The notes under the pieces: generated by a model
What the model was told of the DNA's origin: nothing
Database searches by the model: none
The model's input: only the letters and a program-made list of their open reading frames with translations
Shown here: piece after piece, positions 4,109 to 63,005 of the stretch
How the letters are laid out: the number at the start of each line of letters is the position of its first letter
Numbering within the stretch: position 1 is the first letter of the stretch
Source: Minisyncoccota bacterium
GTDB taxonomy: Bacteria; Patescibacteriota; Minisyncoccia; Phycocordibacterales; UBA9973
Direction: 5' to 3'
DNA length: 64,000 nt
Assembly (NCBI GenBank): GCA_041663185.1
Contig: JBAZQY010000002.1
Span: 10,629 to 74,628 of the forward strand
Position numbers and translations under genes: made by a program

Positions 4109-5029
4109 CTATTTTAACAGCTCCTCTTGTTTTTTATGTGACGCTATAATAGCTTTTGTCACCTTATTCTTTCTAAACTGAGCTACTGTATCAATCAAAT
4201 TATCACTAACCTTAACATTAATTTTTGTAAAATTATTGTAATAAATTTCTATATTGTTTGGTAGAGTGTTTTCAAAAAAATTTATGATTTGATCATTACT
4301 TAAGTTTTTCCCATTAGCTTTTTCGTTTAAGAATTGAAGTTGATCATTGTATTTTAGTTTATAAAAATCTTCTTTTGCCTCATTAATATCATCAACTGTT
4401 TCTTTTATTTCTTCTGGTAAGTATGTTTTGTATAAACTAAGTCCCAACATTGAAAGCCCCTTAAAAACAGGGAACAGTATGCCTGGTATTTTTTTTGCAA
4501 TCACGATAGGAAATTTGCTTTCTTTTTGGGCTTTTTGTATAAATAGGAATAATTCAGAATCGGGGAATATCCATTCTCCATTTTTAAATAAGATGGTTAT
4601 GGGAATATCATTAAATTCTGCTTCTATCACAAAAGGGTGGCTTGAAATTAGTTTCACTTTTTCGAGATATCTTTTAAAGATCTTAATAATCAAATTTAAG
4701 GTTTTTTCTGAACTGCGGTTTTTTATTAAATAATCATTTACTTTTATCTTTTTATCTTTAATTTGTTTTATTCCAGGGATGTTCTGGTAACGAAGATCAA
4801 TAAATAGTTTTTCATCAGTAAGTTTTTTTATTATACGTGGGTCTATGCGTAAATTACCTGGACCAGTCTCACTGAATAAATAATATAATTCTGTTTCTGT
4901 TATAACTTTTGCTTTTGATCTTAAGTTTTCTAGTCTGTATTCAAAATAAATAGCCATTTCATTTATAGAAAGGGAAGATAAGGGTTGTTTGTTCAGTTTA
5001 TCTTTTACTTGTTTTAGTTCTTTTTTCAT
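4109..5029 (-). CDS. hypothetical protein (306 aa), no recognisable domain
   Basis: Long uninterrupted ORF with coding-like composition. Divergently oriented from the AbiE pair across a palindrome-rich intergenic region. Confidence 0.4.
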   Translation of the reverse strand: MKKELKQVKDKLNKQPLSSLSINEMAIYFEYRLENLRSKAKVITETELYYLFSETGPGNLRIDPRIIKKLTDEKLFIDLRYQNIPGIKQIKDKKIKVNDYLIKNRSSEKTLNLIIKIFKRYLEKVKLISSHPFVIEAEFNDIPITILFKNGEWIFPDSELFLFIQKAQKESKFPIVIAKKIPGILFPVFKGLSMLGLSLYKTYLPEEIKETVDDINEAKEDFYKLKYNDQLQFLNEKANGKNLSNDQIINFFENTLPNNIEIYYNNFTKINVKVSDNLIDTVAQFRKNKVTKAIIASHKKQEELLK

Positions 5030-5084
5030 ATAATTCTGATGTATATATAATATTATATATACACTCGAATTACAACAAATAAAC

Positions 5085-5108
5085 GTCCTTTATAATATTA
5101 TAAAGGAC
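5085..5108. promoter_or_regulatory. perfect 24-bp palindrome GTCCTTTATAATATTATAAAGGAC
   Basis: Read directly. Contains TATAAT on both strands. Lies in the 5' region of the minus-strand gene 4109..5029. Confidence 0.5.
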
Positions 5109-5118
5109 GAAAACACAA

Positions 5119-5140
5119 AGGCTTATAATATTATAAGCCT
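5119..5140. promoter_or_regulatory. perfect 22-bp palindrome AGGCTTATAATATTATAAGCCT (same TTATAATATTATAA core as 5085..5108)
   Basis: Read directly. Second copy of the same core, 10 bp downstream of the first. Confidence 0.5.
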
Positions 5141-5184
5141 TGCCTAATAATAACTAATTTAGTTATTCAGAGTTTATTTTGTCT

Positions 5185-21174: not shown

Positions 21175-22648
21175 CTATTTTATTTTAATATTAATACTGC
21201 CATTACTTATTTGGCCATCACCTATTTATGCTTTTGATACAGGAGTGGTTAATCCGGGAACAATGGCCGATGATGCGGCGGTAGGAACTGCCTCTTGGAC
21301 TTTTCCTGATGGAGCAAAAACAAGTAATAATAGTCATGCATATGCATCAAGTACATCAACTGAAACTACTCATTATTTAAAAGCTACAAATTTTGGTTTT
21401 TCTATTCCGACTGGAGCCACAATAAATGGTATTTTAGTTGAGATTGAAAGATATTATGAAACATTAGGAGCGGGAACGGTAAAAGATTCAGAGGTTAAAA
21501 TTATAAAATCAGACGGAACTATTGGCACGACCGATAAGGCAGATACTATTAATGTTTGGCCCCTATCTGATACGTATAAATCTTACGGTTCTTCTTCTGA
21601 TTTGTGGGGAGAGACATGGGCATATTCAGATATAAACGATGCTGATTTTGGTGTTGTTTTGAGCGCCAGTCTTTTGGATGATTTTCCTTTTGCTTATGTT
21701 GACCACATTCGGATTACTGTTTATTACAGTACGGGATTTTCTTGTTCTGTAACTACAGCTGTAGGTTGTTCTGGTACAGTTATTCTTCGAATGTCTGGAA
21801 GTACCAACGCTCACCCAGAACTACCGAGCGAATCGAATGCTAATTATGCCAGTAATGTAGTTTGTTGTACTGGAATTGTCGGTTTAGGTAATTCTTGTTC
21901 TGGAAATTATGCAATTGTTGGAAAATTATCTTCTGCAACAAATGGGCACTTTCAAGAAAATACTTACGGAACCTATGGAAATAATTTTTGTTTATCAAGT
22001 ACCACTCCTGGAGATGAAATAACAATTGGATATCAAAACACTAATTGTTCGGGGTATGATACAACTTTATTTTCTACTTCTTCCTCGGATAATGGAACAG
22101 TCGGAGATGGTAATGCTTATACTCGCAAAATTTGTGGCACCGTAACTCCACTTTATATTTCTTTTTCTATTTCAGATAATTCAATTTATTTTGGAAACCT
22201 TCGATCATCTGGGGCCTGTTGGGCTCAAGGTACAGACCCAGGAGCTGTAGTTTGTCCAAGTCAGACAGAGACAGAAGCATTTAATATGACAGCCAGCACT
22301 AATGCAACTTCTGGTTATAGTATAACAGTACAAGGCCCGACACTTACCTTAGATGGAGGAGGAGATACTATAACTCCACTAGGTTCAAATACATTTTCTA
22401 ATCCTGGCACTGAACAATTTGGTATTAGGTTTACGGCAACTGGTGGTGCGGGTACAGTTACTGTACCATATGCAGCTTCTGGTTATGCTTATGTTGCCGA
22501 TGCTAATACTTCTGATGAAGTAGCGTCTTCTGTAGGTGATTCGGCTACGACTACTTACTCAGCTCGATATATTGCCAATATTTCTAATGTCACAGAAGCC
22601 GGTACTTATTCTGCCAATCACACCTATATACTGACAGGGACTTTTTAG
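21161..22648 (+). CDS. secreted Cys/Thr-rich surface protein, paralog A (shares ~160-aa C-terminal domain with 22762..23829)
   Basis: Signal peptide MRIFNYFILILILPLLIWPSPIYA. C-terminal ISFSISDNSIYFGNLRSSGACWAQGTDPGAVVCP...TYSARYIANISNVTEAGTYS is near-collinear with the next gene. Confidence 0.55.
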   Translation: MRIFNYFILILILPLLIWPSPIYAFDTGVVNPGTMADDAAVGTASWTFPDGAKTSNNSHAYASSTSTETTHYLKATNFGFSIPTGATINGILVEIERYYETLGAGTVKDSEVKIIKSDGTIGTTDKADTINVWPLSDTYKSYGSSSDLWGETWAYSDINDADFGVVLSASLLDDFPFAYVDHIRITVYYSTGFSCSVTTAVGCSGTVILRMSGSTNAHPELPSESNANYASNVVCCTGIVGLGNSCSGNYAIVGKLSSATNGHFQENTYGTYGNNFCLSSTTPGDEITIGYQNTNCSGYDTTLFSTSSSDNGTVGDGNAYTRKICGTVTPLYISFSISDNSIYFGNLRSSGACWAQGTDPGAVVCPSQTETEAFNMTASTNATSGYSITVQGPTLTLDGGGDTITPLGSNTFSNPGTEQFGIRFTATGGAGTVTVPYAASGYAYVADANTSDEVASSVGDSATTTYSARYIANISNVTEAGTYSANHTYILTGTF

Positions 22649-22761: not shown

Positions 22762-23829
22762 ATGTTTAAAATTAAGAGTTTGTTTTTTTCAAAGATAACA
22801 AGCATCGTTACTATTGTTGCTCTTTCTTTGGTTGTTTCTATTGGACCGAATTTAGTGAATGCTGCGAGTCTAACCGCGCTTAAAGATACTCTAAGTACAG
22901 AGTCAGCGACTACGGTAGCTAATCACACGATTCAGTTCACTACTCCAACCGGAGTGGCTTCAGGCCAAACTATTATTTTGACTTTTGATAACAGTACCAG
23001 CGTACCGGTTGCTCTTGACTATACTGATATTGACTTAACTGATGATACGGTAGATGTAACTTTGGCGGCAGCTCCATCGGGAGCAACTTGGGGAGTTGTT
23101 AGAACTTCGAGTACGGTTATTACATTTACTAACGGTACAACTGCAGTTGCCGCGGCTAGTGTTATCGCTATTGAGATTGGTACGCATGCCACTGCTGGTG
23201 TTACTGGTGATCAACAAATAACTAACGGTTCTGCTGGGACCACTTTGCTCACTATCTCTGGAACTTTTACTGATACTGGAACAATTGGTATGCCAATAAT
23301 TACCGATAGTGTGGTAGTTGTTAATGCTCTTGTTCAACCAACTATTTCATTTACTGTTTCTGATAATACAATTTATTTTGGAAACTTAAGAACAGCTGGA
23401 GCTTGTTTTGCTCAAGGTACAGATCCTGGAGCAGTAACTTGTCCGACGACTTCAGAAACAGAAGCTTTCAATCTAACTGCTGGAACCAATGCAACTTCTG
23501 GATACTCGATAACTGTTTATGGGCCAACTCTTACTTCTGGAGCTAATACCATTACCGCTATCGGTGGTACAAATTCGGCTTCTTCCCCCGGTTCTGAACA
23601 ATTTGGAATCAGACTTACAGCGACAGGTGGTTCGGGTGCGGTTTCTGCTCCTTATGCAGATGCTGGTTTTGCTTATGATGCCGCGGCTGCTCCAGATGAG
23701 ATAGCTGCAGCGACTGGTCCATCGGCTACTACCACTTACTCAGCTCGATATCTTGCAAATATTTCGGCTGTCACCGAAGCAGGTACTTATTCAACTAGCC
23801 ATACTCTTGTTGCCACTGCGACATATTAA
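22762..23829 (+). CDS. secreted Thr/Ala-rich surface protein, paralog B
   Basis: Signal peptide. C-terminal ISFTVSDNTIYFGNLRTAGACFAQGTDPGAVTCP...TYSARYLANISAVTEAGTYS. Confidence 0.6.
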   Translation: MFKIKSLFFSKITSIVTIVALSLVVSIGPNLVNAASLTALKDTLSTESATTVANHTIQFTTPTGVASGQTIILTFDNSTSVPVALDYTDIDLTDDTVDVTLAAAPSGATWGVVRTSSTVITFTNGTTAVAAASVIAIEIGTHATAGVTGDQQITNGSAGTTLLTISGTFTDTGTIGMPIITDSVVVVNALVQPTISFTVSDNTIYFGNLRTAGACFAQGTDPGAVTCPTTSETEAFNLTAGTNATSGYSITVYGPTLTSGANTITAIGGTNSASSPGSEQFGIRLTATGGSGAVSAPYADAGFAYDAAAAPDEIAAATGPSATTTYSARYLANISAVTEAGTYSTSHTLVATATY

Positions 23830-28994: not shown

Positions 28995-31091
28995 ATGGCT
29001 AAAAAAGAAGAAAAAAAGACAATAAAATATGGAGCCGATCAAATATCTGTTCTTGAGGGGCTTGAGCCAGTTAGACGACGCCCAGGAATGTATATTGGTT
29101 CAACCGGGATTGAAGGACTTCATCATTTGATTTGGGAAATTTTCGACAATTCTCGAGATGAGGCGATGGGTGGCTTTTGTGATCACATCGAAGTAGTTCT
29201 CTTGCCGGATAATTCTATTCGAGTTACTGATAATGGGCGTGGTATACCAGTTGACATTCATCCTAAAACAAAAGTCTCTGCTCTTGAGACGGTTATGACA
29301 ACACTTCACGCTGGGGGAAAATTTGGAGGTGACGATAGTGGTTATAAAGTCTCTGGTGGGTTACATGGAGTTGGAGCTTCAGTTGTCAATGCACTATCTA
29401 TTTTTACTCGAGCGGAAGTTCATCGTGATGGAGGGAAATACACACAAGAATATAGTCAGGGTAAACGCAAGGCTCAAGTTAAAAAAGTCAGTGCTTCTAA
29501 GAATCACGGGACGATTATTTCCTTTAAGCCCGATGAAGAAATATTTAAACAAATTAAGTTTGATTTAGAAACAGTTGCTAATCATTTACGCCAGCAGGCT
29601 TACTTAGTTAAAGGTTTACGGATAGATATTTTAGATGCCAGAGAATGGGACCCTCTTTCTGGTGGAAAGGGTAAAAAAGATTTTGATGATATTTTTTGGT
29701 TTAGAGAACTTGAACTTGAAATTCCATCAACAACTTTTTATTTTGAAGGAGGATTAGTTTCTCTTGTGAAATTTTATAATAAAACGGAAAAACCAATTCA
29801 TTCGACTGTATTTTATGTTGAAAAAGAAATAGATAAAGTTGGAGTCGAAGTGGCTTTACAGTATGTTGATGATATTAATTACGACATAATTCCTTTTGCT
29901 AATAATATTTATAATAATGAGGGTGGAACACATGTGACTGGTTTCAAAACCGCTCTGACTCGCGTCTTAAATACTTATGGCAAGAAAAATAATTTAATTA
30001 AAGAATCCGACGGGGGATTAACTGGCGACGATGTACTTGAAGGATTAACAGCAGTTATTTCGGTTAAACTCATGGAGATTCAGTTTGAAGGGCAGACGAA
30101 AGCCAAGCTTGGTTCAACTGAAGCCCAGGGTGCCGTAGCCACAGTCTTTGGTGATGCTTTCTCGGCCTTTTTAGAAGAAAATCCAGATGAAGCTAAGTCT
30201 ATCATAAGTAAATCTTTGCTTGCTCTTCGAGCCCGTAAAGCTGCCAAAGCTGCCAAAGATTCAGTTCTTCGAAAAGGAGCACTTGAAGGGATGACCCTTC
30301 CAGGAAAGCTTGCTGATTGTCAGGTTAAAGATGCATCTTCTGCAGAATTATTTATTGTGGAGGGAGATTCGGCTGGTGGTACTGCAAAAATGGGGCGAGA
30401 TAGGAAAACTCAAGCCATACTTCCACTTCGAGGAAAAATTTTAAACGTTGAAAGAGCCCGTCTGGATAGAATGCTCGGAAGTGAACAGATTAAGAATCTT
30501 GTTATTGCGATGGGAACTTCTATTGGAGATACTTTTGATTTGGAAAAAATGCGTTATCATAAAATAATTATTGCCACCGATGCCGATGTCGATGGAGCAC
30601 ATATTCGCACTCTTATTTTGACTTTAATGTATAGATATTTCCGACCTGTGCTTGATGCTGGGTATGTCTATATCGCACAACCACCACTTTTCAAAATTAA
30701 GCGTGGTAAAGAAATAATGTACGCTTATTCAGACGAAGAGCGTGATAAATTACTTGGGAAAGATGCAGAATCACTTGAAGAATTATTACAAGAATCTGCA
30801 AATGAATCTACTGATGTTGAAAGTTCTGATGAGACGACGGAAGAAGAAGAAACAAAAAATAAGAAAGCCTCAACCAAAATTCACGTTCAGAGATATAAAG
30901 GTTTGGGAGAAATGAACTCAGAAGAACTTTGGGAGACAACGATGGATCCTTCTAAACGAGTTTTAAAACAAGTTGCAGTTTCTGATGCCGAAGGAGCAAA
31001 TAAAGTATTTGATATGTTGATGGGTAGTGAAGTTCCTCCAAGAAAAACGTTCATCCAATCCAACGCCAAAATGGCCAATTTGGATATATAA
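28995..31091 (+). CDS. gyrB: DNA gyrase subunit B
   Basis: GHKL ATPase motifs (HAGGKFGG, GLHGVGASVVNALS). TOPRIM (LVEGDSAGG, IATDADVDGAHIRTL). C-terminal acidic insertion. Confidence 0.9.
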   Translation: MAKKEEKKTIKYGADQISVLEGLEPVRRRPGMYIGSTGIEGLHHLIWEIFDNSRDEAMGGFCDHIEVVLLPDNSIRVTDNGRGIPVDIHPKTKVSALETVMTTLHAGGKFGGDDSGYKVSGGLHGVGASVVNALSIFTRAEVHRDGGKYTQEYSQGKRKAQVKKVSASKNHGTIISFKPDEEIFKQIKFDLETVANHLRQQAYLVKGLRIDILDAREWDPLSGGKGKKDFDDIFWFRELELEIPSTTFYFEGGLVSLVKFYNKTEKPIHSTVFYVEKEIDKVGVEVALQYVDDINYDIIPFANNIYNNEGGTHVTGFKTALTRVLNTYGKKNNLIKESDGGLTGDDVLEGLTAVISVKLMEIQFEGQTKAKLGSTEAQGAVATVFGDAFSAFLEENPDEAKSIISKSLLALRARKAAKAAKDSVLRKGALEGMTLPGKLADCQVKDASSAELFIVEGDSAGGTAKMGRDRKTQAILPLRGKILNVERARLDRMLGSEQIKNLVIAMGTSIGDTFDLEKMRYHKIIIATDADVDGAHIRTLILTLMYRYFRPVLDAGYVYIAQPPLFKIKRGKEIMYAYSDEERDKLLGKDAESLEELLQESANESTDVESSDETTEEEETKNKKASTKIHVQRYKGLGEMNSEELWETTMDPSKRVLKQVAVSDAEGANKVFDMLMGSEVPPRKTFIQSNAKMANLDI

Positions 31092-31121
31092 AATTTAGAT
31101 AAAAACTTGCAAAAAGTTGTT

Positions 31122-31151
31122 CCAATATACAAACGGTCGTTCATATATTGG
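31122..31151. promoter_or_regulatory. imperfect copy (25/28) of a 28-bp palindromic motif, CAATATA-C-AAACGG-TCGTTC-A-TATATTG, upstream of the PaaX-like gene
   Basis: Read directly and compared with the perfect downstream copy at 31780..31807. Confidence 0.5.
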
Positions 31152-31182
31152 AAAAATAATAATTTTAATATACAATATAAAT

Positions 31183-31734
31183 ATGAGTCCTAAATATTAT
31201 AAAGGATATAAGGTAGGATCTTTAGAAAAAGGATTACTTAAACTTATTTTGAATGTTAAAAATTGTGAATTACCAAACAAATATGATGAATCTTTCTCAG
31301 ATATTTTTAAAACAATTCGTCAAAAGATGGAGTATTCTAATACAACAAAAAGAATGATCAAAAAAGGTCTTCTAAGATATACAAATAAAAATGAAAATTT
31401 AGGTATTGTTTTGACTAACAAAGGAAAAGATTTGGCACGAAAATATTTATTAGAAGATATAAAACTAACTGAAAATCATAATTGGGATAACAAATGGAGA
31501 ATTGTAATGTTTGATATTCCTGAAAAAAAGAAAAAAATAAGAAACACCATAAGATTTCATCTAAAAAGAATAGGTTTTGTTCAAATACAGGGGAGTGTTT
31601 GGATATTTCCATATCCGTGTGAAGAGATAATAACTATCATAAAAAACAATTTTAATTTAGAAGATGAAATAATATATATTACTACAGAACAATTTGAAAA
31701 AGATTATCGATTAAAGAAAATATTTAGAATTTGA
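31183..31734 (+). CDS. PaaX-like transcriptional regulator (wHTH plus Cas2-fold C-terminal domain)
   Basis: WDNKWRIVMFDIPEKKKKIRNTIRFHLKRIGFVQIQGSVWIFP matches the PaaX_C / Cas2-like W..W.lv.yDiPe...R..lr..L...Gf..lq.SVW..p pattern. Start moved to ATG 31183, behind the palindrome. Confidence 0.5.
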   Translation: MSPKYYKGYKVGSLEKGLLKLILNVKNCELPNKYDESFSDIFKTIRQKMEYSNTTKRMIKKGLLRYTNKNENLGIVLTNKGKDLARKYLLEDIKLTENHNWDNKWRIVMFDIPEKKKKIRNTIRFHLKRIGFVQIQGSVWIFPYPCEEIITIIKNNFNLEDEIIYITTEQFEKDYRLKKIFRI

Positions 31735-31779
31735 AATAAGTTATGAATTAACTAATTATTGTTTTATAAATAATAGTTA

Positions 31780-31807
31780 CAATATATAAACGGCCGTTTA
31801 TATATTG
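31780..31807. promoter_or_regulatory. perfect 28-bp palindrome CAATATATAAACGG|CCGTTTATATATTG downstream of the PaaX-like gene
   Basis: Read directly. Confidence 0.55.
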
Positions 31808-31831
31808 TAATAAATTAAAGAAAATCAAGAA

Positions 31832-32066
31832 CTATTTTTCTCCTTTTAAAATTATTCTTTTCTCAAATCCACCCTTTCCCTTCAACTTCTTTAATTGAGT
31901 TTTTTCAACATCGCTAAATTTTGGCAATTTCTTCAAGGTCTCAATAACTTCCAATATATCAGCTAATTCTTCAATATTTTTGGCCTCTATAAATTCTTTT
32001 ATTTCTTCATCTAGTTTTTTGATTAATTCCTTTTTATATTTTTCATCATTCGCTATTTTTTTTCAT
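31832..32066 (-). pseudogene. 77-codon open frame downstream of thrS, separated from a potential ATG by one extra base in an A8 homopolymer; all-alpha MazG-like small protein?
   Basis: Minus-strand ATG at 32066..32064 is followed by A8 and an in-frame TGA. The +1 frame is open for 77 codons (KKIANDEKYKKELIKKLDEEIKEFIEAKNIEELADILEVIETLKK...GGFEKRIILKGEK), with an EELADIL segment like the EExGDvL of MazG-type NTP pyrophosphohydrolases. Confidence 0.25.
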
Positions 32067-32134
32067 AAGAAATACCTTTAGAATCTAAATATTCTGGTAT
32101 TTTATCTCTAACTAATTTGTTATATTTTTACATC

Positions 32135-33892
32135 TTAATTTAATGTTTTTTCTGAAATTTCTTTTTTGAGTTTTTCTAGAAATTTTTCTATTTTGATATT
32201 TTCTAGTTTTTCAGTTCGCCCTTCAACGGTAATAGTATTACTCTCTTTTTCTTTATCACCGATAACTATTATGTAAGGTGTTTTTTGCATTTTGGCGTTG
32301 CGGATTTTTTTACCAAGAGATTCACTTGAATCATCCAGTTCTACTCTAATATTTTCTTCTTTTAATTTATTTAATATAACGCCAGCATATTCATTTTGTT
32401 TTTCACTAATAGGAGTAATGATAACTTGGACAGGGGAAAGCCAAAGGGGAAATGCTCCAGCGTATTGCTCTATCATAAAAGCGAAAGTTCTCTCTAAACA
32501 TCCTATTGCTGAGCGATGAATCATAACAGGTCTTTTCTTAGATCCATCTTCAGCAGTGTATTCAATATTAAATTTTTCCGGAAGAAGAAAATCAATTTGA
32601 GCAGTAAAAATGGTGTCTTCTTTTCCGTTTACATTTTTTATTTGGATATCTAATTTTGGCCCATAAAAAGCTGCTTCACCTTCTGCTTCCTCATAAACAA
32701 GGTTTATTTCATTTAGAGCTTCACTCATAAGTTTTTCAGCTTTTTCCCATAGATTATCATCTGCATAATATTTTTCTTTATCTTTTGGATCTCTTTTGGA
32801 AAATCGATAAGAGATAACTTCACTGAGTCCCAGGCCAATCATTCCTTCTTGAATCATTTTACAAACTTTTTTAAACTCATCTTTTAATTGTTCAGGAGTC
32901 ACAAAAAGATGTCCGTCAGTTAATTGGAATTTTCTAACCCGGATCATTCCCATTAATTCTCCTGATTTTTCATATCTATTATAGTCTGCAATTTCAGCAT
33001 ATCTGATTGGTAAATCTTTATAACTAATTGGCTTACGCATTACCATTTTAATATGATGTGGACAAGCCATCGGCCTAAGATAAAAAAGATCTCCATCCAT
33101 ATCTATCGGTGCATACATATTTTGTTTGAAATGAGAAAGATGCCCAGATGTTTGATAGAGTTTTTCTCCTCCTAAATATGGAGTTGAAACATGTTCATAC
33201 CCATATTTTATTTCAAGATCTCTCGTAAATTTTTCTAATTCATATTTAATTACTGTTCCTTTTGGTGTCCAAAGAGGAAGTCCTTTTCCAACTTCTTCAT
33301 CTATAAAGAAGAGATCTAGTTCTTTTCCAAGTTTTTTGTGGTCGCGATTTTTTGCCTCCTCTCGCATTTTTACATAATTATCAAGTTCTTCTTTTGTATC
33401 AAATGCTAATCCATAAATACGAGTAAGCATTTTATTTAATTCACTCCCTCGCCAGTAGGCGCCGGCCACTCGGTCAAGCTTAAATGAATCCACTTTTATT
33501 TCTTTTGCTGGATGCTCTACGTGTCCGCCACGGCAAAGATCTGTAAAATCACCACAGGTATAAAGAGTTATCTTTTCACCCCTTGAAACAATATCATCGA
33601 TTAGTTCTAACTTATACGTATTACCATTAAAATATTTTCTTGCTTCCTCAACACTTGCTTCTTTATGAGTAAATTCTTTCCATGAAGAAAGGTTTTTCTT
33701 CATGGTTTTTTCTAAGATTGCTAAATTTTCATCATTTATCTTATCTTCACCGAAATCGATGTCGTAATAAAAACCATTGTCTACCGCAGGACCTAGGGTT
33801 AATTGAGCCTTTGGATAGTGTTCCAGTGCTGATTGGGCTAAAAGATGAGCTAAGGTGTGTCGAATATTTGCTAAATGTTCGTTGTTTTCCAT
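32135..33892 (-). CDS. thrS: threonine--tRNA ligase (short form lacking N-terminal TGS region)
   Basis: Class II motifs. Zn-binding/catalytic region. C-terminal anticodon-binding domain (HRSAIGCLERTFAFMIEQYAGAFPLWLSPVQV). Confidence 0.9.
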   Translation of the reverse strand: MENNEHLANIRHTLAHLLAQSALEHYPKAQLTLGPAVDNGFYYDIDFGEDKINDENLAILEKTMKKNLSSWKEFTHKEASVEEARKYFNGNTYKLELIDDIVSRGEKITLYTCGDFTDLCRGGHVEHPAKEIKVDSFKLDRVAGAYWRGSELNKMLTRIYGLAFDTKEELDNYVKMREEAKNRDHKKLGKELDLFFIDEEVGKGLPLWTPKGTVIKYELEKFTRDLEIKYGYEHVSTPYLGGEKLYQTSGHLSHFKQNMYAPIDMDGDLFYLRPMACPHHIKMVMRKPISYKDLPIRYAEIADYNRYEKSGELMGMIRVRKFQLTDGHLFVTPEQLKDEFKKVCKMIQEGMIGLGLSEVISYRFSKRDPKDKEKYYADDNLWEKAEKLMSEALNEINLVYEEAEGEAAFYGPKLDIQIKNVNGKEDTIFTAQIDFLLPEKFNIEYTAEDGSKKRPVMIHRSAIGCLERTFAFMIEQYAGAFPLWLSPVQVIITPISEKQNEYAGVILNKLKEENIRVELDDSSESLGKKIRNAKMQKTPYIIVIGDKEKESNTITVEGRTEKLENIKIEKFLEKLKKEISEKTLN

Positions 33893-42776: not shown

Positions 42777-43520
42777 ATGATGATAACTGAAAAGATTACA
42801 TCAGACCCAATGACCGAAGGTCAACTTAAAGCAATCAAGCGTTTGCTTGAAGATGGTATTAATTTATTTAATTCCACCGACCTCGTAGCCCTTGGTTTTA
42901 CCAAGGATGAATCGCAGGAAATTCTTAAAAAAGGAAATCTGATTCAGAACGAAACGAAAGTGTTCCTGACAGCGTTACTAAAAAAGTATGCAATCATCGA
43001 CAAACGTTTTGGTGTTCCTATTGAATTCAATCTAACGGTTCCTGCCGACTACAATCACGACAAGCAAATTGACACTTCAGCCCAAAAAGCAAAAGGTGAA
43101 AAGACCACGTATTACTACAACGATGATCTTAACAGTAAGAATTTTACAAAAGCAACCAGGAAACTGGAGCCGGGCAAAACATACAACGTAAAAATCATCC
43201 CGATTCTTGAAGGGGTAACGAGCGAAGACTGTCTGACAATATTGAGCAGATACAATGCTATATTGGTAGGCGGGCAGGGTGCAACCTTAGTGTATGATGT
43301 CGCTAAAGATAAACTTCCGAAAGGTAAATGGGCAGTTTCTTTTGATGAAAAGAAGGCTCTCTGGAAAGACGCTGGCGGCTACCGCAGGGTGCCTGGCGTG
43401 ATTGCCCACTCGGATGGTGACTTCAAGTTCGGCCTTGGCTACTTCGAGGGTGACTGGGATGGTGACGGCGTTCTGCTTTGCTTCTGCGACGTGCCTGCTT
43501 CCGAGCAGGCTAGCACTTAG
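42777..43520 (+). CDS. DGR target protein (no signal peptide) carrying the variable repeat at its C-terminus
   Basis: ORF whose last ~120 nt are the VR copy of the downstream TR. C-terminus ...GYRRVPGVIAHSDGDFKFGLGYFEGDWDGDGVLLCFCD. Confidence 0.6.
   Translation: MMITEKITSDPMTEGQLKAIKRLLEDGINLFNSTDLVALGFTKDESQEILKKGNLIQNETKVFLTALLKKYAIIDKRFGVPIEFNLTVPADYNHDKQIDTSAQKAKGEKTTYYYNDDLNSKNFTKATRKLEPGKTYNVKIIPILEGVTSEDCLTILSRYNAILVGGQGATLVYDVAKDKLPKGKWAVSFDEKKALWKDAGGYRRVPGVIAHSDGDFKFGLGYFEGDWDGDGVLLCFCDVPASEQAST
43369..43490 (+). repeat. DGR variable repeat (VR), 122 bp
   Basis: Hand-aligned to 43840..43961: 106/122 identical. All 16 mismatches are at TR adenines. Confidence 0.8.
43493..43510 (+). 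promoter_or_regulatory. GC-rich hairpin (GCCTGCT-tccg-AGCAGGC) immediately 3' of VR, absent after TR; candidate DGR homing hairpin / IMH-associated structure
   Basis: Read directly. 7-bp stem, 4-nt loop, starts 3 nt after the VR/TR homology ends. Confidence 0.45.
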
Positions 43521-43839: not shown

Positions 43840-43961
43840 ACGCTGACGGCAACCACAGGGTGCCTAACGTGAATGCCAACTCGGATGGTGACTTCAAGTT
43901 CAACCTTGGCAACTTCGAGAATGACTGGAATGATGACAACGTTCTGCTTTGCTTCTGCGAC
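43840..43961 (+). repeat. DGR template repeat (TR), 122 bp, rich in AAC/AAT codons in the VR frame
   Basis: See VR. Reads in frame as DGNHRVPNVNANSDGDFKFNLGNFENDWNDDNVLLCFCD. Confidence 0.8.
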
Positions 43962-44375: not shown

Positions 44376-45350
44376 ATGTTTGTTCATAAATATAACAATA
44401 TCATATCAATCGAAAATCTCCTTATGACTTGGGAGCGTTTTCTTCGTGGAAAACGCAAAAAGAAAGATGTGATAATCTTTCAATCAAAACTTTCTGATAA
44501 TATAAACGATTTATATAATCTTCTTCAAACAAGAACATATATTCATGGCGAGTACTCAGCCTTTAATGTTTCAGACCCAAAACCGAGGAATATTCACAAG
44601 GCGACAGTTCGCGATAGGCTTTTACACCATTTGATTTACAAAGAATTATATCCGTATTTTGATACTAGATTTATTTATGATTCGTACTCGTGTAGAAAAA
44701 ATAAAGGAACACACAAAGCACTAGACCGATTTCGATTTTTTGCAAGGAAAGTTTCAAAAAATAATACCAGAACTTGCTATGTATTAAAAGGAGACATAAA
44801 AAAGTTTTTTGCAAGCATTAATCATGATGTTTTACGCTCAATTCTCGGACGGCATATTGAAAACAAAGAGATACTCTGGTTAATCAACCAGGTCATTAAA
44901 AGTTTTCATACAACAAATGAAGGTATCGGCTTACCACTCGGAAATCTAACCTCTCAACTTTTAGTAAATATATATATGCATGAATTTGATATGTTTGTAA
45001 AACAGGAACTTCGAGTGAAATATTATATTCGTTATGCTGACGACTTTGCAATTTTTTCAGACAGTAATAAATATCTGGAAGAATTGCTTCCTAAGATGGA
45101 AATATTTTTGAATGAAAAAATGAAATTGAAACTTCACGAAAACAAAGTGTATATCAAAACTTATGCTTCGGGAGTAGATTTTTTAGGCTGGATTCATTTT
45201 CCATATCATCGACAAATACGAACAAGTACAAAAAGAAAAATAATCAGAAAATTGAAAGGTTATCCCAAACCAGAAACGATAAACTCATATCATGGATTAT
45301 TAGGGCATGGAAATACTTATAAACTTAGGAAAAAGGTGAAAATTAATTAA
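44376..45350 (+). CDS. DGR-type reverse transcriptase (no maturase/endonuclease domain)
   Basis: RT motifs 1-7 including IRYADDFAIF (YxDD). Motif 4 GLPLGNLTSQ is the GxxxSQ hallmark of DGR RTs. 324 aa. Confidence 0.8.
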   Translation: MFVHKYNNIISIENLLMTWERFLRGKRKKKDVIIFQSKLSDNINDLYNLLQTRTYIHGEYSAFNVSDPKPRNIHKATVRDRLLHHLIYKELYPYFDTRFIYDSYSCRKNKGTHKALDRFRFFARKVSKNNTRTCYVLKGDIKKFFASINHDVLRSILGRHIENKEILWLINQVIKSFHTTNEGIGLPLGNLTSQLLVNIYMHEFDMFVKQELRVKYYIRYADDFAIFSDSNKYLEELLPKMEIFLNEKMKLKLHENKVYIKTYASGVDFLGWIHFPYHRQIRTSTKRKIIRKLKGYPKPETINSYHGLLGHGNTYKLRKKVKIN

Positions 45351-45787: not shown

Positions 45788-45794
45788 TTGAAAT

Positions 45795-45834
45795 AAAGAA
45801 AACGACCTCTACTGAGGTCGTTTTCTTTATTTTA
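45795..45834 (+). terminator. strong hairpin terminator after khpA
   Basis: AAAGAAAACGACCTC-tact-GAGGTCGTTTTCTTT 15-bp perfect stem, then ATTTTAT. Confidence 0.55.
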
Positions 45835-61967: not shown

Positions 61968-62399
61968 TTATAAAGTTAGGGGTAAAATTAAATAATAATA
62001 CGTTATTGCAATAACAAACCAGTAAACAGAGAAAAGGGGACATACAAGCCCCATAAAATTAAAAGGTTCTTTAAAATAGTCCCATAAAAAAGTTTTTTTA
62101 ATTTTTAGGTATAAATATCCCGTAGTAAATTCTATTATTGTGGGAAATAAAAATATTGCAATTAATTTAATAATTAATAAAGTATCTAAAAAATAGATAA
62201 AAACAAGGAAGGCTCCAGTTATGCCATACATTTGATAGTTTATTAATTTTGGGATTATTATTTTTTTTGTTTTAAAAGAACGGTAAGTAAATTCCAATAA
62301 AAATCCTATAATAAATCCTAGTAATAAATTTAAAATAATTTTACTAAGCATAATAAAAATTATATCATAATTTTTAGGTAGTTTTAAGATCTTACCCAA
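61968..62399 (-). CDS. small polytopic membrane hypothetical protein
   Basis: Four predicted TM helices. No recognisable domain. Confidence 0.35.
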   Translation of the reverse strand: MGKILKLPKNYDIIFIMLSKIILNLLLGFIIGFLLEFTYRSFKTKKIIIPKLINYQMYGITGAFLVFIYFLDTLLIIKLIAIFLFPTIIEFTTGYLYLKIKKTFLWDYFKEPFNFMGLVCPLFSVYWFVIAITYYYLILPLTL

Positions 62400-62425
62400 C
62401 TTTCGCTATCGCATTTTTGGGGTAA
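62392..62425 (+). repeat. 34-bp motif TTACCC-N6-yGCTATCGC-N6-GGGGTAA, upstream copy
   Basis: Read directly. Outer arms TTACCC/GGGTAA are inverted. The core GCTATCGC is shared with the copy at 62972..63005. Confidence 0.5.
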
Positions 62426-62444
62426 AGTAGTATAATATAAAAAT

Positions 62445-62936
62445 ATGAGCGTAGAAAGAGAGATTCTTGAATATTTTAATCGTGATAAACCAGCCATCAA
62501 ATATAAGGGGATAAGGGTTAATTTGATGGGTTTACCTGATTTTAAATACTATAAATATCAAACTCTTGCGAATAAATTCTCTATACTAAGCAAGAAAGGT
62601 TTTGTAAAGAAAATGCCCAATGGAGAATATCTTATAACAATTAAAGGAAGAGCCTTTTTAGAAGAGGGAAAAGATATTTTAAAAAAATTTGAAACCGATA
62701 AAAATAAAAATTCACCGAAGAATTTACTTCTTGTGTATGATATAGAAGAAAATAGAAAAAAAGAAAGAGATTGGTTTCGTTACCACCTAAAAAAATTTCA
62801 TTTTATAATGATTCAGAGAAGTGTTTGGGTTGGTCCATCGCCACTTCCTAAAGAGTTCTCTGATTATTTAAAAGAAATAAAATTGGGTGATAATTTAAAG
62901 ACATTTAAACTCTCAAAAGGGTATGGAGAAAAATAG
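62445..62936 (+). CDS. PaaX-like regulator paralog (wHTH plus Cas2-fold domain)
   Basis: LLLVYDIEENRKKERDWFRYHLKKFHFIMIQRSVWVGPSP has the same motif family as 31183..31734. N-terminal wHTH-like segment. Confidence 0.5.
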   Translation: MSVEREILEYFNRDKPAIKYKGIRVNLMGLPDFKYYKYQTLANKFSILSKKGFVKKMPNGEYLITIKGRAFLEEGKDILKKFETDKNKNSPKNLLLVYDIEENRKKERDWFRYHLKKFHFIMIQRSVWVGPSPLPKEFSDYLKEIKLGDNLKTFKLSKGYGEK

Positions 62937-62971: not shown

Positions 62972-63005
62972 TTACCCGTTTTCTGCTATCGCGGAATCGG
63001 GGTAA
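62972..63005 (+). repeat. 34-bp motif TTACCC-N6-yGCTATCGC-N6-GGGGTAA, downstream copy
   Basis: Read directly. Same orientation and spacing as the upstream copy. Confidence 0.5.

Follow-up and report, generated by a model that had tools for sequence, protein, structure and literature searches.

The 64-kb window examined here, a stretch of the genome of a Minisyncoccota bacterium (contig JBAZQY010000002.1; "the window" always means this whole stretch), contains a gene at 31183..31734 whose product joins a winged helix to a Cas2-like domain, and this gene is bracketed by two near-identical palindromes, one upstream (UP) and one downstream (DN). The palindromes are almost certainly the cognate sites of the protein encoded between them, because the UP/DN pair recurs in 63 of 79 homologous loci with arms that are specific to each locus. 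Since the effector domain of PaaX is absent and the score lies far under the PaaX equivalog cut-off, the protein is named mini-PaaX. A paralogue at 62445..62936, detected by a tblastn scan of the window, is bracketed by its own, different pair and does not figure in the original prediction. The site pair of gene 31183..31734 is designated P1 and that of the paralogue P2. Further copies were sought in ~81.5 kb, the window plus 8.6 kb and 8.9 kb of adjoining sequence from the same assembly. The family was surveyed in 79 complete homologous loci from genome contigs, with protein identity down to ~30%; labels of the form L### denote loci outside the window, and P with four digits (P0004, P0033) denotes family proteins.

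The two-domain architecture of the 183-aa protein, proposed earlier as a winged helix-turn-helix (wHTH) plus a Cas2 fold, is borne out by profile searches and by structural comparison. Pfam PaaX_M (PF20803) matches at 2.4e-22 (79.3 bits; cut-off 24), and Cas2 is matched by both Pfam PF09827 (4.7e-6; 27.1 bits, cut-off 23.8) and TIGR01573 (25.8 bits, cut-off 24.5). The PaaX equivalog profile TIGR02277 gives 32.6 bits against a cut-off of 264.55 and aligns over its positions 42-141 of 279 only. No Pfam match to PaaX_C was obtained, and the protein stops at residue 183. The wHTH region of PaaX is matched by the family profile at E = 0.009. An AlphaFold2 model with a mean pLDDT (predicted local distance difference test) of 75 displays a helix/wing module at residues ~11-91, where pLDDT is just 57-79, followed by a beta-alpha-beta-beta-alpha-beta ferredoxin-like domain at 105-180. 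Searched with Foldseek, this model matches E. coli PaaX best among PDB entries (8a39; 180 columns aligned across both domains, E = 5.7e-6), ahead of Rv0674 and the Jannaschia PaaX-like protein 3l09. The C-terminal half matches many Cas2 chains with a TM(target) of 0.43-0.66 and the N-terminal half matches MarR-type winged helices, while a PDB search with the C-terminal domain as a single sequence was uninformative. The ATG at 31183 is favoured over an upstream TTG by the conserved N-termini of the orthologues (MSPK/MSTK...). The protein is 100% identical to one from a metagenome-assembled genome (MAG) of Candidatus Paceibacterota (candidate phyla radiation, CPR, or Patescibacteria).

The invariant residues of the family gather in the Cas2-like half (W101, D102, W105, F110, D111, R120, Q136, S138 and P143), and in the alignment D111 falls on the Asp of the Cas2 beta1 'YDV' motif. 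Mini-PaaX resembles the Cas2 of CRISPR adaptation, and VapD, in its ferredoxin-like fold, in profile scores just over the cut-off and in the aligned conserved Asp. Unlike in Cas2, the domain is fused to a wHTH, and no cas1, cas context, CRISPR array or CRISPR-type tandem repeat is found in the window. The neighbours are the housekeeping genes gyrB, a mazG-like gene, thrS, rpmF and nusB, and no paa genes occur in the contexts called. Searches with PHROGs and PADLOC returned generic Cas2 or wHTH matches only, and no HUH or transposase domain was detected in the protein. The public label 'CRISPR-associated endonuclease Cas2' carried by these genes is a misnomer; the fold is that of Cas2, but the protein is no CRISPR Cas2.

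The features of both loci are collected in Table 1. The original prediction had placed CAATATACAAACGGTCGTTCATATATTG with 3 mismatches at 31123-31150 and the perfect palindrome CAATATATAAACGGCCGTTTATATATTG at 31780-31807. Both positions are correct; the proposed length of 28 bp is too short, as the palindromes extend over 31120-31153 and 31777-31810 and the conserved unit reaches ±19 bp family-wide. The arms of P1-UP are TTCCAATATACAAACGG|TCGTTCATATATTGGAA, and those of P1-DN, TTACAATATATAAACGG|CCGTTTATATATTGTAA, form a perfect 17+17 palindrome. These are the sole matches with up to 3 mismatches in the window, where 0.00 were expected from 100 shuffles. Both copies fold at -12 to -16 kcal/mol (z -4.3 to -6.3), and an Rfam search of 30900-32200 gave no match. 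P1-DN is followed by TAAATTAAAG.

Table 1. Genes, palindromic sites and promoter hexamers of the two mini-PaaX loci in the window
Feature	Position	Strand	Remarks
mini-PaaX gene, 183 aa	31183..31734	+	winged helix ~11-91 and Cas2-like ferredoxin fold ~99-180; no PaaX C-terminal effector domain
P1-UP, TTCCAATATACAAACGGTCGTTCATATATTGGAA	31120..31153	.	14/17 mirror positions paired; 29 nt past gyrB stop codon
-35-like hexamer TTGGAA	31148..31153	+	coincides with outer right half-site of P1-UP; 17 nt to TACAAT
-10-like hexamer TACAAT	31171..31176	+	6 nt before ATG; leaderless-type promoter
P1-DN, TTACAATATATAAACGGCCGTTTATATATTGTAA	31777..31810	.	17/17 paired; 42 nt past the gene's stop codon, 21 nt short of the 3' end of the convergent mazG-like gene
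mini-PaaX paralogue, 163 aa	62445..62936	+	PaaX_M 1.2e-12, Cas2 2.2e-6, weak wHTH
P2-UP, TTACCCAACTTTCGCTATCGCATTTTTGGGGTAA	62392..62425	.	outer half-sites and centre kept; inner arms not complementary; poor hairpin, z = -1.2
-10 hexamer TATAAT	62431..62436	+	8 nt before paralogue ATG, 5 nt past P2-UP
P2-DN, TTACCCGTTTTCTGCTATCGCGGAATCGGGGTAA	62972..63010 including TTTTT (site 62972-63005)	.	folds well, z = -4.8; terminator-like

Across the family, the 63 loci counted above have an UP/DN flank match that is significant and itself palindromic, and strong palindromes are 22-fold denser in the flanks of the family genes than in the rest of the loci (2.7 versus 0.12 per kb; 0.53 Mb). The arms vary between loci and agree within a locus. 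The UP copy typically ends 0-45 nt before the start codon, and the DN copy begins 2-60 nt past the stop codon. Because paralogues of a single genome carry different palindromes (P1 and P2, L025 and L040, L057 and L063), orthogonal protein/site pairs within one genome are suggested. The family is large: clustering at 50% identity gives ~1000 clusters within E <= 1e-30 and 3929 within E <= 1e-10, and at least 592 matches were found in species-representative genomes; the 80 that were examined are all annotated as Patescibacteria-type MAGs or are evident mis-binnings.

A more ordinary origin has to be weighed at this point, namely that the palindromes terminate or insulate gyrB and the regulator gene and are alike through local duplication. 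P1-UP is called terminator-like on the minus strand in a terminator scan, the TTTTT after P2-DN looks the same way, and A- and T-tracts stand at some DN copies (L006, L079). However, the UP/DN pairing with its locus-specific arms is kept down to 30-40% protein identity, and no plus-strand terminator was called at P1-DN. T-tracts are not enriched after DN either, as at least 5 T in the next 8 nt were seen in 9 of 55 cases, the same as for UP, and separate canonical terminators follow some copies, such as the one beyond the DN palindrome of L081. Of 58 loci, 44 have a co-directional upstream neighbour and 14 a divergent one (downstream neighbours are split 28 to 29), and the UP copy persists in those 14 loci and at P2 in spite of the divergent upstream gene. 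An origin as duplicated terminators is thus very improbable.

The position of the gene is conserved within the clade of the window. The order gyrB-[gene]-thrS-rpmF-nusB-rnc-smc is kept in orthologues of 60-73% identity (L001, L002, L003, L005, L081 and L173), and the rpsB...proS context of P2 is shared with L076. The original prediction had offered, as an alternative, a small cassette with repeats as its ends; that it moved recently is unlikely in view of the conserved gyrB-gene-thrS synteny and the lack of relatives in viral contigs. In a fuller version, the gene and its terminal palindromes would move as a unit, with integration resembling spacer insertion that duplicates a pre-existing palindrome. 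This version can draw on the 72% identical homologue P0004, which keeps its own bracket although it lies elsewhere, flanked by TerC and a 571-aa gene, and where the outermost arms add 5 nt of complementarity (CCCCA...TGGGG). It can also draw on the several paralogues per genome and on the low number of locus pairs with a common neighbour (28 of 124 pairs of >=60% family identity). Against it, besides the synteny, no relatives in mobile elements and no integrase or cas1 nearby were seen, nor a CRISPR array, and palindromic extension or complementarity of the outermost flanks beyond ±19 is at background across 55 loci, apart from single cases (L057, L170). Such a cassette is very unlikely, and the relocation of P0004 together with the 28 of 124 shared neighbours indicates instead that the family was duplicated or relocated with its sites over longer times. 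As a separate observation, gyrB adjoins the mini-PaaX gene in L026, L029 and L052 (~38-41% identity, in differing orientations) besides the window clade (L001, L002, L005, L081, L173); this linkage could be ancient, or could reflect a functional tie with gyrase.

The anatomy of the site was derived from 112 sites. Conservation extends to ±19 bp around the centre and is at background level further out. C at -3 and G at +3 are invariant within a core R-C-K-R|Y-M-G-Y, and mirror symmetry is 85-98% at positions 11-18 and 56-80% at positions 5-10. The arms begin with TTACA, ACGT, GTAC and so on, according to locus. Such a tripartite site fits a dimer with two winged helices set wide apart by a central dimerisation domain.

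The UP copy was also compared with the promoter. Leaderless starts dominate the window: in 20 of 49 long open reading frames (ORFs) a -10-like hexamer, often TGnTATAAT, stops 4-10 nt short of the ATG, and a Shine-Dalgarno-like motif precedes just 4 of 49. In the orthologues 6-7 nt separate the -10 from the ATG and 8-23 nt separate it from the end of the palindrome upstream, and TTGTAA is often found at the -35 position. In a Zambryskibacteria-like clade the -10 TATAAT lies inside the left arm of the UP copy beside the start codon, being perfect in UP and degraded in most DN copies. Since P1-UP covers the -35 region of a leaderless promoter, its occupancy should block that promoter. This geometry supports negative autoregulation by a PaaX-type dimer acting through the UP copy. 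The autoregulation proposed in the original prediction is accordingly retained, on the conserved pairs with locus-specific arms and on the promoter overlap; the motif is not the operator of this gene exclusively, as described below.

From the positions and sequences of the sites, their conservation across the family, their co-variation with the locus and the fold of the protein, we infer binding, dimerisation and repression in the following form, to which an even chance is given. A symmetric mini-PaaX dimer would bind a tripartite palindrome of ~34-38 bp as duplex DNA, with outer half-sites at 11-19 from the centre, a loose spacer and a core holding the invariant ±3 C/G. The UP copy would lie over the -35 region of the leaderless promoter from which the gene itself is transcribed, and its occupancy would repress the gene. 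The DN copy would be a member of a set of sites that includes a few identical copies at 3' intergenic positions in relatives, mostly between convergent ends, and the protein would occupy these as well. The bracket would then consist of one promoter-proximal operator and one gene-end site, and some copies may additionally act as hairpins.

The P2 pair bears on the form in which the site is recognised. Its pattern is TTACCC-N7-GCTATCGC-N6-GGGGTAA, with sole copies at 62392-62425 and 62972-63005, and the paralogue lies between a divergent CmpB-like membrane gene and proS (start 63120). P2-UP has the same half-sites and centre as P2-DN and lacks the pairing of the inner arms, its RNA folding no better than shuffles; recognition as duplex DNA is therefore favoured.

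The distribution of the sites in relatives was studied by scanning JGI metagenome contigs with the clade tripartite pattern TTACA-N8-ACGGCCGT-N8-TGTAA, which P1-DN matches. The scan returned 87 sites, of which 62 have no family gene nearby and are called orphans here; where a family gene is present, a partner copy with 1-4 mismatches stands on its other side. The same scan with the window motif CAATATANAAACGGNCGTTNANATATTG gave 0 matches, the species of the window lying outside that collection. Of the orphans, 58 are intergenic; 48 of these stand next to a gene 3' end, 29 of them at a distance of <=10 nt, and 20 lie between convergent genes as against 4 between divergent ones. The locus of the window has an orthologous counterpart on the 593-kb Nomurabacteria contig Ga0076170_11, where synteny is the same and the regulator, P0033, is 63% identical. 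Besides the bracket, this contig has copies after murB and between pepN and rnhB; in a second assembly of that species, recG and a 567-aa Zn-ribbon gene are also followed by copies. Of the six Nomurabacteria copies, five are 34/34 identical, spacer included, in unrelated flanks, and at least four orphans are 34/34 identical to the UP site. These orphans lie 1-8 nt after the stop codons of murB, recG, rnhB and the Zn-ribbon gene; three of the four lie between convergent 3' ends and two face the 3' end of a tRNA gene. The copy number is ~6 exact-pattern copies per ~0.8-Mb genome.

The individual orphan positions differ in how widely they are kept. Four strains or species have the murB-3' copy in 34/34 identical form despite differing MurB C-termini and intergenic flanks, and a canonical terminator lies beyond it. 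At the pepN/rnhB position, where U-rich tails are seen on both strands, many species have a palindrome of the same class with species-specific spacers, including a MAG from the sample of the window. The 3' ends of the Zn-ribbon gene in two other MAGs have ordinary terminators and no palindrome, so that this orphan position is not universal; a Zn-ribbon protein gene (564-aa in a related MAG) appears to be absent from the genome of the window between rpoD and a dsbA-like gene, a gap of 42 nt being found there (L168 2958-5039 compared with L172 91-3964). Local arrangements of several palindromes were also found. In L004 (3821-4880) two upstream and three downstream copies surround the family gene, and L018 has two downstream. 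Family-type palindromes separate three toxin-antitoxin modules in L121 2170-3820 and also in L163 (HicA-like | DUF433 + PIN-like | BrnT/BrnA), and in L131 (367-1537) 2+2 of them bracket an EamA-like membrane-protein gene. The original prediction was to be judged by how often the motif occurs at unrelated sites: identical copies stand at at least 4 such sites in the orthologous Nomurabacteria genome, and none extra in the 81.5 kb searched here. Given the gene-end copies in this relative, the motif is not exclusively the operator of its gene, and the arrangement is more than a simple self-regulating switch.

For the gene-end sites, the role that we prefer, with low confidence, is that of a symmetric barrier or insulator of convergent or tandem units, formed by the bound dimer. 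At the locus of the window such a barrier would shield the mini-PaaX gene from gyrB read-through and from antisense transcription from thrS/mazG, leaving pure autoregulation. The original prediction had instead joined the two sites by DNA looping: protein bound at both copies would interact and loop the ~650-bp gene for stronger autorepression, as in the lambda OL-OR and lac O1-O2-O3 operators, an arrangement that does not exclude repression through the UP copy. Two near-identical sites do bracket the gene in most family members, and the UP-DN spacing is narrow (580-750 bp), though it is dictated by the length of the gene. But the centre-to-centre distances of 580-902 bp have no helical phasing (Rayleigh p 0.6-0.99 at 10.3-10.7 bp; weak evidence at such distances), nothing points to tetramerisation, and palindromes occurring singly at unrelated gene ends indicate that a DN-type copy needs no partner. 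Looping is therefore considered unlikely, and it is not retained.

Several observations weigh against a dimer that merely represses its own gene and guards gene ends. No further P1 copy was found in the ~81.5 kb searched of the window's own genome. In the Nomurabacteria the copies are more uniform than ordinary regulon sites, five being 34/34 identical. With a barrier placed 1-8 nt past the stop codon, RNA polymerase should come to a halt while still within the ORF, and where a canonical terminator follows the palindrome, as in L081 and at murB, a barrier would be redundant. The differences between UP and DN copies are also unusual. They include 46 mirror double changes where 15.3 ± 3.2 were expected, and 0 of 5000 permutations reached 46; 26 of the 46 keep self-complementarity in both copies. 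At positions 13-17, double changes number 18 with compensation and 1 without, next to 20 single changes, and at positions 14-18 the symmetry within a site (0.87-0.98) mostly exceeds the identity between copies (0.82-0.98). Mirror changes point to selection or mutation that favours intrastrand pairing, which would not be expected of a simple dimer on two half-sites. They may stem from selection for hairpin or cruciform pairing, from template-switch correction of quasi-palindromes, or from a copying mechanism.

Pairing could be selected at the level of RNA. On this account the palindromes form transcript hairpins, as 3' untranslated region (3'UTR) elements, terminators or stabilisers, which the protein binds to control termination or decay of its own mRNA and read-through from upstream. 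The compensatory changes preserve pairing, the P1 copies fold well, and copies next to stop codons and ahead of the canonical terminators of L081 and murB would be transcribed as 3'UTR. The DN copies exceed the UP copies slightly in palindromy (14.3 versus 13.8 of 17) and have a weak bias of G/T over A/C at their mismatched mirror positions (28 versus 17), while the mostly co-directional upstream neighbours and the U-rich tails at the pepN/rnhB copy point the same way. The promoter, however, lies downstream of UP or inside it, which places the full UP hairpin outside the gene's own transcript. P2-UP and many other UP copies are poor hairpins that nevertheless keep the half-sites and centre, and the mismatched mirror positions of UP have no sense-strand G·U bias (G/T 25 versus A/C 24). 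Middle stem positions are paired in just 56-80%, T-runs are not enriched after DN, an Rfam match is missing, and PaaX relatives bind DNA. Taken together, an RNA-level element seems rather improbable.

The uniform dispersed copies recall a different kind of system. Repetitive extragenic palindromes (REPs) lie downstream of coding regions or between convergent genes, and the genes of REP-associated tyrosine transposases (RAYTs) are flanked by REPs (PMC3733652). By analogy, the mini-PaaX palindromes would be dispersed repeats that the bracketed protein maintains, copies or homogenises, with the Cas2 fold as a nuclease and autoregulation as a side effect. The likeness extends over several traits. 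Cognate extragenic palindromes flank the gene twice in the window, in the 63 of 79 loci and in the metagenome loci; their length lies in the range of 20-40 bp, and in relatives, though not in the 81.5 kb searched here, further copies lie downstream of coding regions, where genes converge or follow in tandem. Position is conserved and inheritance vertical, protein and repeat diverge together, and different families, each paralogue with its own type, coexist within one genome. The five identical copies in one genome, the murB-3' copy identical across four strains or species, the local multiplication in L004 and L018 and the toxin-antitoxin modules or other genes separated or bracketed by such palindromes all suit this account, as do the mirror-symmetric changes and the alignment of the invariant Asp111 with the Cas2 Asp.

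Set against these traits, mini-PaaX is a wHTH with a Cas2 fold where a RAYT is an HUH Y1 transposase, and neither a GTAG nor a CGTC tag is present. Its sites amount to a handful, ~6 per 0.8 Mb, not to tens to hundreds, and they are near-perfect with zero loop. Orphan positions of the pepN/rnhB type are kept across species with diverged palindromes and so resemble stable functional sites rather than transposing copies, and no pair of an empty and a filled site was found. The Cas2-like domain of PaaX has moreover been described as a dimerisation motif (PMC9493321). A REP/RAYT-like origin of the copies is thus a minority possibility. Slightly narrower, and likewise doubtful, is the related idea of a self-maintaining partnership of repeat and protein, similar to that of RAYTs with REPINs, built on a Cas2-like protein that would recognise and possibly nick the palindromes, keeping a small, genome-specific set of gene-end copies homogeneous through long spans of evolution in Patescibacteria.

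Binding as a dimer with autorepression, the preferred reading, has its closest parallel in PaaX, the phenylacetyl-CoA-responsive repressor of paa operons in E. coli and Pseudomonas (8a39, 3l09). The operator of E. coli PaaX is TGATTC-N27-GAATCA, a very long palindrome with outer half-sites (PMC9493321). Both proteins have an N-terminal winged helix followed by a Cas2-like central domain (PF20803), and PaaX is the best structural match. PaaX represses its own promoter through a long palindromic operator, and the geometry of the mini-PaaX site, with half-sites at ±11-19 and overlap with the -35, is compatible with the same mode of action. Mini-PaaX differs in its length (183 aa versus ~310), lacking the C-terminal helical effector (phenylacetyl-CoA) domain, and in its sites, which flank both sides of the gene and sit at the 3' ends of unrelated genes with no paa genes nearby. 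It differs also in its number of paralogues, several per genome with distinct sites, and in having kept Cas2-like motifs (FDI..., QxSVW). The protein would work like PaaX but is not a PaaX equivalog, given the missing effector domain, the lack of paa genes and the sub-threshold score.

A parallel for the dispersed sites is offered by the replication terminator systems. Tus/TerB of E. coli and RTP/Ter of Bacillus subtilis are likewise small DNA-binding proteins autoregulated by an adjoining site of their own, RTP being a winged-helix dimer. A further 5-10 dispersed chromosomal Ter copies act as protein-DNA barriers. Ter sites are asymmetric, polar and clustered around the terminus, whereas the mini-PaaX sites are symmetric.

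In full-text searches of the literature, no paper came up that connects Patescibacteria with PaaX-like proteins or with palindromes of this kind. The system is best described as a putatively autoregulated PaaX-type binder whose cognate palindromes both bracket its gene and are dispersed at gene ends. Patescibacteria have tiny genomes with few recognisable regulators and almost no experimentally defined regulatory sites. Here a large and widespread family is obtained together with apparently orthogonal protein/site pairs and a corrected 'Cas2 endonuclease' annotation. Because each gene is bracketed by them, the candidate DNA sites can be read straight from each genome, which provides ready predictions for DNA-binding assays and for the analysis of a specificity code. 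The dispersed copies, the uniformity within a genome and the mirror-symmetric arms exceed ordinary operator evolution and tie a Cas2-fold protein to palindromic repeats outside CRISPR. If the self-maintaining partnership were true, it would represent a new class of persistent repeat system, with a non-CRISPR Cas2-fold protein acting on palindromic repeats.

Other features of the window were also noted. The mazG-like (PRA-PH-like) gene at 31835-32133 on the minus strand, next to P1-DN, aligns with its L162 orthologue as two segments joined at 32056-32062; a frameshift, or a homopolymer sequencing error within a run of A, is suggested. The divergent intergenic region 5021-5141 holds three palindromes, at 5021-5082, 5084-5109 (CGTCCTTTATAAT|ATTATAAAGGACG) and 5118-5141 (AAGGCTTATAATA|TATTATAAGCCTT), upstream of a 201-aa ORF and of an AbiEii (PF08843) gene; they are probably operators or promoters of an AbiE-type toxin-antitoxin pair. 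Downstream of ORF 45132-45341, a hairpin with a perfect 19-bp stem (AAATAAAGAAAACGACCTC / GAGGTCGTTTTCTTTATTT, 4-nt loop) lies at 45791-45832, and the product of that ORF resembles a 72-aa fragment beside an orphan palindrome in L086. Two direct repeats were found as well. The first, of 122 nt with 87% identity, pairs 43369-43490 with 43840-43961 at a distance of 471 bp. The second, of ~450 nt with 75-77% identity, pairs 22156-22611 with 23343-23792, ~1185 bp apart, and probably represents tandem paralogous genes.

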